A stretch of 64,000 nt of DNA from an uncultured Chlamydiae bacterium (lineage in GTDB: Bacteria; Chlamydiota; Chlamydiia; Chlamydiales; SM23-39): assembly GCA_963730605.1 (NCBI GenBank), contig CAVSSM010000002.1:96001-160000 (forward strand). The letters are read 5' to 3'. How positions within the stretch are numbered: the first letter of the stretch is position 1; each line of letters begins with the position of its first letter. Both the position numbers and the translations under genes were made by a program. The notes beneath the pieces are model-generated. The model did no database searches, was not told the origin of the DNA, and saw only the letters and a list, made by a program, of their open reading frames with translations. Below, piece by piece: positions 6,969-56,529 of this stretch.

Positions 6969-8006
6969 ATGACCCTCTTCCAATCCATCATCCTAGGGAT
7001 CGTTCAAGGGCTCACCGAATTTTTTCCGGTCAGCTCTTCCGCCCATTTGGGGCTGGCCAAATGGCTTTTGGGGCTGCAGGATGGCGGGCATCTCCTCTAC
7101 TTCGATCTTGTTTGCCATAGTGGAACGCTCCTCGCGCTGATCCTCTTTTTGCGCAGAGACATCGCCGCAACGTTTAAGAACCCTAAAGAGCTTTTCCTTA
7201 TGGCTCTTGCCCTATGCCCTCTTGTCCCTGCTTATTTTCTCATGGAGCCTCTTCGGATCGCGGCCTCCGATCCCGCCTATCTGGGGTTTTTCTTGATGTT
7301 CACTGCACTCCTTCTTTTTTTCGCCTCCATAAAAAAAAGCGAAAATCGACACAAAGTTCGCACCAGTTCATTGCCTAAAGTGGCCTCTTTCACAATTTTC
7401 ACACAGGATTCGGGCGAGCGAGGCAAAGCCGGATTGAAGCGCAGCGTTCCACATGACGAAGCCATAGCCGAAGGCGCTATGGCTGAGGAAGAGGATCGAT
7501 CTGGCTGCGGAATCGAGAAAAAGGTTCGAGGAACCTTTTTCTCGCGGAGCAGATTCGCGAAGCGAATCGGCCCGAAGGGAGCCGCAGCCGGCCGAAACCC
7601 TGTGAAAATTGTGAAAGAGGCCACTAAAGTCAAAGATGTGCTATGTATAGGGTTTATGCAAACGCTGGCCCTTCTTCCCGGAATCTCGCGCAGCGGGTCG
7701 ACGATCGCGACGGGGCGCCTTTTAGGCTGGGATTGGATCGCCGCAGCGCGCTTTTCCTTTCTCCTTGCTACGCCTGCGATCCTAGGGGGGCTGGCTCTAG
7801 AGACCCTGAAACTCCTCCGCGAGCCATCTGCTCACGTCACAGAAGTCTCGGCCTCTTGCTATGCAGCCGGCTTCATCGCATCTTTTGCCATGGGGGTGAC
7901 CTGTGTCCGTTTTATGTTCAAAATCTATGAACTTGGGATCGTGCGCCCGTTTGCGTGGTATTGCCTTGCCGCCGGCCTCTTAGCCTTATGGACGTTCCAT
8001 GCTTAA
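6969..8006 (+). CDS. uppP: Undecaprenyl-diphosphate phosphatase carrying an in-frame 83-aa palindrome-derived insertion
   Basis: GIVQGLTEFFPVSSSAHL and ALLPGISRSGSTI motifs; 345 aa, 262 aa without the insertion. Confidence 0.93.
   Translation: MTLFQSIILGIVQGLTEFFPVSSSAHLGLAKWLLGLQDGGHLLYFDLVCHSGTLLALILFLRRDIAATFKNPKELFLMALALCPLVPAYFLMEPLRIAASDPAYLGFFLMFTALLLFFASIKKSENRHKVRTSSLPKVASFTIFTQDSGERGKAGLKRSVPHDEAIAEGAMAEEEDRSGCGIEKKVRGTFFSRSRFAKRIGPKGAAAGRNPVKIVKEATKVKDVLCIGFMQTLALLPGISRSGSTIATGRLLGWDWIAAARFSFLLATPAILGGLALETLKLLREPSAHVTEVSASCYAAGFIASFAMGVTCVRFMFKIYELGIVRPFAWYCLAAGLLALWTFHA
7379..7625. mobile_element. Palindromic element, family B, in frame within uppP
   Basis: Perfect 25-bp TIR AGTGGCCTCTTTCACAATTTTCACA / TGTGAAAATTGTGAAAGAGGCCACT; 247 bp plus a 2-bp duplication = 249 nt = 83 codons. 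Confidence 0.92.
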
Positions 8007-55289: not shown

Positions 55290-56529
55290 GATAAAAGCTG
55301 CCGCAAATCACTTCGCGCGCGTCAACCGATCGGATCGCCTCTTGCAAAGATCCACCGCCAAGAGGGACAAAACGGGGATGGGTATTGATAAAACTGATCT
55401 TGGCGGCAAGAGGCCGGATCAGATCCAAACAGGCTTGCCACTGCTTATCTTTCGAAAAGGCGACGAGGAAATGAAATTTCTCTTTCGGAAAATGGATTCG
55501 AAGCGCCTCGGCCAGCCGTGCGAAGCCTTGCGCATTATGGGCTGCATCGAGAACGGTATCGCCGATGATTTCAAAGCGGCACGCCGGCCGGGCCCGAATC
55601 CCCGCTTCGATCGATTTTTCAGAGAGGCCAAGGCGCCTCATTGCTGCGGCGGCGACCATGCAATTTTCCGCATCGTAAAATCCCGAAACCGGAGGCACGG
55701 CCTCCGCATGGGGGAAAAAGGGCGCTGCGCTCGGGCCCGCGATGAATGGGATTCCTGTTTTGACAATTCCTGCTTTCTCGCGCGCGATTTTTTCTAGCGT
55801 ATCGCCTAAAATCTCCATGTGGTCGTATCCTATCGAAGTGATGACGGAGATTTCAGGTTGGATCACATTCGTCGCGTCAAGCCGCCCTCCCAATCCCACT
55901 TCGACGACCGCCCAATCGACCTGCTCTTTTCGGAAATGGAGGAATGCGAGGGCGGTCATGAGATCGAAAAACGAATAGGTTTCAGATTGCAATCGAAATA
56001 GGGCAGATAGATGGCAGATGATCTCCTTTTCGGCAATCACCTCCCCATCAATCCGGATCCTCTCGCTCATGCTAGAGATGTGAGGCGAAGTGTAAAGCCC
56101 GACGCGAAAACCCTCCGCTCTCAACCCTTCGGCGATCTTGGTCGCGACGGACCCTTTGCCGTTCGTGCCGCCGACATGGACTGAGCGGAAGGACCGGTGA
56201 GGAGATCCCAAAGTCTGGTCGAGCCTTTGGAACGCGTCGAACGTTTTGACCCCTCGTCCCGGCATAGCGAGCAGCTTCTCAATGAGAGTTATACCGCGCT
56301 CCGTCAGGTTGTGTGAATTTGGACTGGCTGCGACTTTGCCAAATCGATCCTTCTCGTCGCCCTTCCCCATTGAGGAATGGTCCCTACGGGCCGGTTCGCC
56401 TGCGCTCACCTGCTCCTCACTGCGAAGGTCCACCGGACCTTCTCGTGTTTCCGCAGCCTCCTGCGGATCAATTCTGCTTTGTCTCGCAAAGTCCAAATTC
56501 ACAAAACCATCCTGCGCGCGGTATGTCAT
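55216..56529 (-). CDS. folC: Folylpolyglutamate/dihydrofolate synthase with an in-frame 78-aa N-terminal insertion
   Basis: HVGGTNGKGS, YTSPH, EVGLGGRLDATNV, EKAGI, DAAHN, GSFYL; ATG overlaps the PHP stop (ATGA). Confidence 0.9.
   Translation of the reverse strand: MTYRAQDGFVNLDFARQSRIDPQEAAETREGPVDLRSEEQVSAGEPARRDHSSMGKGDEKDRFGKVAASPNSHNLTERGITLIEKLLAMPGRGVKTFDAFQRLDQTLGSPHRSFRSVHVGGTNGKGSVATKIAEGLRAEGFRVGLYTSPHISSMSERIRIDGEVIAEKEIICHLSALFRLQSETYSFFDLMTALAFLHFRKEQVDWAVVEVGLGGRLDATNVIQPEISVITSIGYDHMEILGDTLEKIAREKAGIVKTGIPFIAGPSAAPFFPHAEAVPPVSGFYDAENCMVAAAAMRRLGLSEKSIEAGIRARPACRFEIIGDTVLDAAHNAQGFARLAEALRIHFPKEKFHFLVAFSKDKQWQACLDLIRPLAAKISFINTHPRFVPLGGGSLQEAIRSVDAREVICGSFYLMDEARRLLNLLNGSRAGSASGAY
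56290..56525. mobile_element. Family A element, long variant with nested module, in frame in folC
   Basis: TATACCGCGC...GTGAATTTGGACT / AGTCCAAATTCAC...GCGCGGTAT; net 234 nt = 78 codons. Confidence 0.9.

Follow-up and report, generated by a model that had tools for sequence, protein, structure and literature searches.

We analysed a stretch of 64,000 nucleotides from an uncultured Chlamydiae bacterium (assembly GCA_963730605.1, contig CAVSSM010000002.1, positions 96,001 to 160,000), hereafter the window, in which the uppP/bacA and folC genes each carry a folded repeat in frame, designated elements B and A, respectively. A second copy of A lies in a dehydrogenase E1 open reading frame (ORF), and small hairpin repeats form a composite array (Table 1). 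Nested in several of these repeats is a module of about 75 nt, present in four copies in the window and, counting full cores, in 95 copies (71 of them distinct) in the 2.2-Mb genome, G000. An earlier note on this DNA had recognized three of the four, and both their places and their stems were confirmed; its count has to be raised because a covariance model built from 20 copies matched a short form at 892-951.

Table 1. Module copies and their host elements in the window
Feature	Positions	Strand	Remarks
Host miniature inverted-repeat transposable element (MITE), TA-ended, with short module and other hairpin cassettes	831..1048	-	
Short-form module, core only	896..946	-	overlooked in the earlier note
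Host element B, 237-nt in-frame insertion in uppP/bacA	7381..7617	+	not in G003 orthologue; AAAG duplicated
Second GA-flanked hairpin of B	7457..7492	+	GAA...GAG flanks as in phiX174 F-G hairpin; module's strand
Full-length module, 75 nt, in B	7505..7579	+	GG at 7503-7504 directly 5'
Module-less A copy, 162 nt, in dehydrogenase E1 ORF	15385..15546	-	
Composite array of small hairpin repeats around the 38784 copy	38750..39050	.	parts recur at C1:442.9k and C2:404.8k
Module core (38807-38857) with variant tail, in small structured repeat	38784..38857	-	
Host element A, TA-ended MITE, 234 nt	56291..56524	-	in frame right after likely folC start codon; absent from G003 orthologue
Full-length module, 75 nt, in A	56382..56456	-	GG at 56457-56458 precedes; 3 nt replaced relative to empty A copies

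Copies, fold and distribution of the module

Pairwise local alignment of the three copies first recognized gave scores of 70-72.5, whereas 1000 shuffles averaged 20-24 and reached at most 34-41, indicating that they are truly related. The further copies expected by the note were also found: a first profile pass yielded 102 matches at E ≤ 1 in the genome and two in the reversed genome (best E 0.095), and a second round yielded 101 at E < 0.01, of which 95 comprise the full core and six, partial or degenerate, were discarded. One of the 95 cores is internally deleted and was excluded from the orientation counts; the other 94 collapse into 80 host elements. Large, near-perfect inverted duplications, possibly long-read fold-back artefacts, occur at C10:8573-11614, C1:718809-722281 and C8:2904-5934, and the one in C10 may count one module pair twice. 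At C5:35372 a module tail with both mini-hairpins lies without a core, adjoining the end of another MITE. A further covariance-model match in the window (23591-23649, 21.6 bits) falls in coding sequence and was judged to be chance.

The note had assigned the working role to the pyrimidine strand, but the module is best read on the opposite, purine-rich strand, which bears the GA loops and GNA triloops: a GNA/GNR-loop descriptor fits 73 of the 95 cores on this strand and none on the other, the purine content of the loops being partly imposed by our search patterns. In this orientation CTGC and GCAG enclose, in this order, a purine-rich loop strand of 5 nt, a 14-bp stem closed by a short apical loop, usually of 3 nt, and a second loop strand of 4 nt; 3' of GCAG lie two mini-hairpins, the first with tandem GA and a GNA triloop, the second of the form CCC-GNA-GGG. 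The C(TTCG)G and C(TACG)G mini-hairpins described in the note do exist, but as complements of the CCC-GNA-GGG triloops. GNA triloops, including those on 2-bp stems, and GA zippers are stable DNA motifs, and the design of the module suits single-stranded DNA; the N of its triloops, on stems of 2-3 bp, can be any of the four bases.

The outer CTGC/GCAG stem of 4 bp is near-invariant, with GCAG in nearly all cores and GTAG in two of the 71 distinct ones, whereas the inner 14-bp stem is variable and covaries. Pairing thus persists while the stem sequence differs, as the note had claimed: 11 of the 14 inner-stem pairs changed on both sides among 20 copies (10 of 14 in another count), and 13 of 14 did so among 80 distinct copies from other genomes, in a model-fitted alignment. 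Covariation extends to two of four tail pairs and includes AC..GT / GC..GC exchanges. Copies of the A type contain an additional G.A-rich internal loop (GA/GCA, GGA/GGA or GAA/GTA). Energy folding, which ignores sheared G.A pairs, recovered the outer stem only partly. The module is real and structurally conserved. Structural selection, also proposed in the note, is likely but not proven, because correction of quasi-palindromes can produce two-sided changes without it; the stronger argument for selection therefore lies in the mismatches that are kept and in the constant stem length, with purine loops unpaired and an inner stem near 14 bp across two families.

Stems of the type A-tract/hairpin/T-tract are found in many of the copies, but not in those of the A type or of G030, where the tracts are missing. 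Identity with an intrinsic terminator was considered and rejected, U-tracts being missing from these same copies and 15 of the 80 elements lying inside long ORFs.

Beyond this genome, the module occurs in patchy bursts in two chlamydial families. Among 41 relatives, a pattern search gave matches in 11, of which one (G026) lacks the hairpin and represents chance, and the covariance model matched nine of 151 genomes of the phylum, with at most 36 candidates scored per genome. An exact long pattern retrieved 20 stretches among 185,579 genomes, titled as chlamydial groups, Verrucomicrobiota or uncultured bacteria (the latter labels taken as given), whose flanking repeats resemble the chlamydial hosts; a metagenome scan with a pattern requiring GG retrieved 19 stretches, nearly all within similar folded repeats. 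Conversely, none of 112 exact-flank matches in viral contigs has a stem over 7 bp, indicating chance, and blastn gave one weak partial match in plasmids and none in phages or Escherichia coli genomes. The comparison with Rfam advised in the note identified no family for the module, returning only tRNAs in the window and, for 20 host loci, five weak sub-threshold matches and none at the gathering score. A literature search, with most subscription papers outside its reach, found no published description of the module.

Host elements and landing sites

The hosts are folded repeats of 160-350 nt, some of them in frame inside genes, and comprise TA-ended MITEs, families with other termini, repeats without terminal inverted repeats, loops of small hairpin repeats and other modules; four large MITE families, of 14-29 copies each, contain no module. 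For 76 of the 95 cores, the genome contains an empty relative of the host. As the note had pointed out, A in folC exceeds the E1 copy by 72 nt (234 against 162 nt), and A and B are of about 165 nt without the module, since B adds 237 nt to uppP by comparison with the empty allele of G003, leaving 165 nt once the 72 nt are subtracted. The copy at 38784, which the note considered free-standing, sits in a small structured repeat with an empty relative at C1:442.9k. Many hosts have terminal inverted repeats and a target duplication; the module itself has neither inverted repeats at its mobile ends nor a duplicated target. In all 22 anchored cases, the polarity of the module follows the purine strand of the host.

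Directly 5' of all 39 full-length copies found with a search pattern that did not demand it, there is a GG. Among 36 tail-bearing flank clusters, some of whose loci came from a GG-requiring pattern, G occupies position -1 in 33 and -2 in 35, with positions -5 to -8 mixed; two pattern searches demanded GG and thus lend no independent support to this rule. The 157 contexts from the genome and from fetched loci define 64 distinct 5' flank clusters, which have nothing in common beyond GG and a purine bias at -3/-4. Comparison of 26 distinct flank pairs with their nearest empty sites indicated that the module replaces 3 nt in 14 cases, 2 nt in two, 4 nt in one and 6-7 nt in three, the remaining six being ambiguous. 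The replaced triplets are AAG, AGG, CAA, TAA and AGC/GAG, at six site types, and the usual net gain of 72 nt recurs in comparisons with empty A copies in G001 and G003. In four cases a module begins in the apical loop of another, again directly after GG, and one metagenome contig contains a head-to-tail module joint, with 85% likeness, so that it may be from another copy or organism. In locus L243, the first 27 nt of the module are simply repeated, as would be expected from slippage.

Since 64 flank types are found in unrelated MITE families, other repeats and modules, the module behaves as a second-order mobile cassette, and it very probably moves on its own, whatever the enzyme. This part of the note, a second-order unit riding on MITEs, therefore stands; the link that it drew to REP elements and RAYT is not supported (see below).

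Several observations concern the hosts and their surroundings. A second hairpin cassette (CCCC-AAAGACGATGCGTCTT-type) is nested in TA-ended MITEs and also occurs apart from them, with 202 two-strand matches in the genome and none in the reversed genome (for instance at C1:625328, at C11:108749 and inside L120 and L126); possibly this cassette, too, is a second-order unit. A T-loop-like TTCGAATCC / TTCGAGTCC motif marks tandem repeats that look like derivatives of tRNA 3' halves and lie beside an inserted hairpin at 38920-39000 of the window and at C2:272999-273419 and C2:404803-405208. Adjoining the array around 38784 is a 612-aa ORF (36838-38676), an unusual fusion in that residues 549-596 form a HicA-like domain at the C-terminus; an sbcD-like ORF and a 1146-aa ORF come next. 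In G130 (L168), a module-bearing repeat with a short duplicated end adjoins the 3' end of an apparent tmRNA gene.

Possible routes of movement

None of six candidate enzyme families tracked with the module, in a check that was not an exhaustive comparison of gene content and in which G000 is 83% complete. RAYT was above the cut-off in none of five genomes, and a weak match in G030 has no module nearby. Y1 nucleases were above it in six of ten genomes (3/5 and 3/5) and not in G020, G030, G130 or G162, and no core lies beside the scanned Y1 loci (L144-L150, L268, L269 and L273; L270 and L274 were left out). IS630 was found in three of five genomes and IS110 as one partial gene in one of five; moreover, cargo of IS110 and its bridge RNA duplicates the core dinucleotide without loss, whereas the target of the module usually loses 3 nt. 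GIY-YIG matches were mostly full-length UvrC-sized proteins, plus a short ORF in G030 and a partial one in G020, and the two scanned loci have no module alongside. Reverse transcriptase (RT) occurs in four of ten module-positive and eight of 31 module-negative relatives, and is absent from G124, G130 and G156, three near-complete, module-rich genomes. At C2:29.3-31.4k (L205), the partial IS110 gene has foreign-looking neighbours and an abrupt joint to chlamydial genes, a possible assembly chimera.

These data led us to a reading to which we give a close to even chance: the module would be a non-coding cassette of 75 nt that enters unrelated folded repeats when a host DNA polymerase switches templates, without a transposase of its own. 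We infer the following steps. A nascent strand would stall inside a folded repeat with its 3' end at GG, which would pair with the CC at the foot of the complement of a donor module and prime copying. The new purine strand would fold on itself through its GA loops and GNA triloops and leave the donor after the last mini-hairpin. Its terminal GGG could then return to the original template and pair there, mainly as G-C or G-T, as the replaced triplets, mostly purines, would allow, overwriting the next three bases. The host MITEs would amplify the module passively, and short forms would result from later loss of the tail.

A 5' joint fixed at 2-nt homology, a more variable 3' joint, small losses and restarts in apical loops fit such copying. 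Likewise, the empty G003 allele indicates that the left end of B is an inverted copy of uppP sequence native to the right of the element, so that the outer inverted repeat (window 7375-7630) is not the element's own sequence, and the tail of B is a perfected palindrome; both are signatures of template switching. The bolder claim that the module is protein-free mobile DNA of 75 nt, with no inverted ends, target duplication or dedicated enzyme, whose own single-strand fold would let host polymerases copy it after GG into any folded repeat, is possible but doubtful.

Several points weigh against template switching. Simple slippage accounts neither for the near-invariant CTGC/GCAG sequence nor for the 142 of 151 genomes of the phylum without a match, and the invariant outer stem and patchy distribution together suggest a protein that reads sequence; a helper enzyme may have been lost or unassembled. 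Short forms are often preceded by CA, TG or GA instead of GG. The empty relatives are paralogues, and hence the 3-nt rule is inferred; among orthologous loci, none was found with a given host element filled in one genome but empty in the other, G003 lacking whole hosts, and neither an insertion event nor an intermediate was observed. There is no bias towards leading or lagging strands (39:38, for the 77 of 94 copies with a clear skew). Finally, according to crude ORF calls, 13 of 15 copies inside genes (p=0.007) and 25 of 36 in co-directional spacers (p=0.029) have the purine strand on the sense side, a bias that is not consistent in families without the module and that points to an effect at the level of RNA or transcription.

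Among the alternatives, it is unlikely that an HUH nuclease (Y1, RAYT- or IS200-like) moves the unit as single-stranded DNA, with GCAG as the guide choosing the CTGC end. The strand polarity, the precise end, the lack of a target duplication, the near-invariant tetranucleotide 5' of the hairpin and the patchy distribution all agree with it, as do the palindromic ends of one host in G023, which we take to be IS200-like. The module also resembles repetitive extragenic palindromic (REP) sequences and bacterial interspersed mosaic elements (BIME) in being a short, strand-polarised, patchy and multi-copy hairpin with a tetranucleotide 5' of the stem, but it has GCAG rather than the GTAG or CGTC tag of REP palindromes, and three hairpins in 75 nt. 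Furthermore, HUH insertion leaves its target intact, IS200/IS605 elements inserting 3' of a fixed target of 4-5 nt without loss of bases, whereas the module's target is fixed only at GG and usually loses 3 nt. The RAYT or IS200/IS605 TnpA genes flanked by the module, for which the note advised a search, were not found: RAYT was above the cut-off in none of five genomes, Y1 fell short of it in four, and the scanned Y1 loci contain no core. PMC8266576 reports that TnpA-REP cuts between C and T; the junction of the module lies between GG and CT, and its targets share GG and then vary.

A second possibility concerns function and is compatible with template switching: that the module is a primosome assembly site or single-strand initiation signal, from which MITEs gain priming on exposed strands. 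We consider this rather improbable. A GNA/GRR descriptor matches phiX174 once, on the viral strand, where the hairpin between F and G has GCGAAGC behind it. The module and the primosome assembly sites of phiX174 and ColE1 (n'-pas, ssiA) resemble each other in a GA-flanked hairpin with an A-tract/T-tract stem and then a GC-GNA-GC mini-hairpin; ColE1 contains the tail motif GA-GC-GNA-GC-GA a single time, at 1332, presumably the ssiA region; a looser descriptor matches hairpin h1 of Chp1 (VP1-VP2) on the viral strand; and PriA is present. The descriptors, however, were composed after phiX174 had been seen, and none matches Chp2, MH2K or G4. Eighty gokushoviruses showed no enrichment (eight matches on the viral and 15 on the opposite strand, against nine and 16 in reversed controls), the F-G hairpin occurs in only the phiX174-identical one of 22 phiX-like loci, and the viral exact-flank matches are those without longer stems described above; the likeness is not general in microviruses. 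In addition, the covariance model scores phiX174 at a non-significant 12.5 bits (E 0.6), the module is a chromosomal repeat inside repeats, PriA is also present in module-negative genomes and the four large MITE families do without the module. The lead from phiX174, Chp1 and ColE1 is a resemblance only, and anecdotal. As a separate observation, the annotated hairpin h1 of Chp1 (L277:1386-1492), read on the viral strand, combines an A/T-tract stem with a GTA/GAA loop and occupies the place that the priming hairpin has in phiX174.

It is improbable that the module is just one of several interchangeable hairpin blocks shuffled among related MITEs by ordinary recombination, its covariation arising from palindrome correction. 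The TA-ended hosts are indeed mosaics of several hairpin cassettes, among them the second cassette with its 202 matches, the tail of B is a perfected palindrome and several landing sites neighbour each other in one host design. Shuffling is nevertheless at odds with 64 flank clusters that share only GG and the purine bias, with hosts spanning different classes of terminal repeats, repeats without them and other modules, and with purine loops kept unpaired beside a stem of close to 14 bp in two families.

Still less credit is due to target-primed copying of a structured pyrimidine-strand RNA into nicked targets by an RT. One precise and one variable end, microhomology, target loss and three identical group II intron RTs in G000 speak for it, but RT does not track with the module, the intron contains no module, and a GNA triloop on a 2-bp stem is a motif of DNA. 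The three near-identical introns, with an intact 445-aa RT (C1:286.5-288.4k, C4:1-1952 and C8:29.8-31.7k), are ordinary and recently mobile. Finally, that the unit is kept for a role in RNA, be it as terminator, pause or processing site, is suggested by the tract-flanked stems and the sense bias but very improbable, as the tracts are missing from G030 and A-type copies, copies lie in frame in uppP and folC, no Rfam family matches, the junction rule is left unexplained and the bias may arise because the C-rich orientation is selected against.

Relation to known inserts in bacterial repeats

Elements of this kind, inserts within bacterial repeats, are already known, and the module is probably a variant of them. 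Internal insertions of ERIC, palindromic pieces of about 70 nt, were reportedly described by Sharp in 1997, Wilson and Sharp in 2006 and De Gregorio in 2005, and are said to be restricted to ERIC and to few sites. We know of no established mechanism for ERIC inserts or for BIME and BOX blocks. The likeness extends to the host, ERIC being a TA-flanked MITE according to PMC3184786, as many module hosts are TA-ended. The module differs in entering unrelated repeat families and itself, with its GG and 3-nt rule, and blastn of one module host against E. coli genomes gave no match. The hosts resemble the Rickettsia palindromic elements (RPE) and other bacterial MITEs (PMC3733652); the module, without terminal inverted repeats or target duplication, does not.

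The question addressed is how the modular insides of small bacterial repeats originate. Because a single unit offers dozens of independent junctions and a simple rule, the mechanism is directly testable. The net gain of 72 nt keeps the reading frame, so that 24 residues are added to the proteins of genes with a host element, such as UppP and FolC. If the bolder claim of protein-free movement is true, this enzyme-less unit would count as a hyperparasite of MITEs and would represent a new class among minimal mobile elements.

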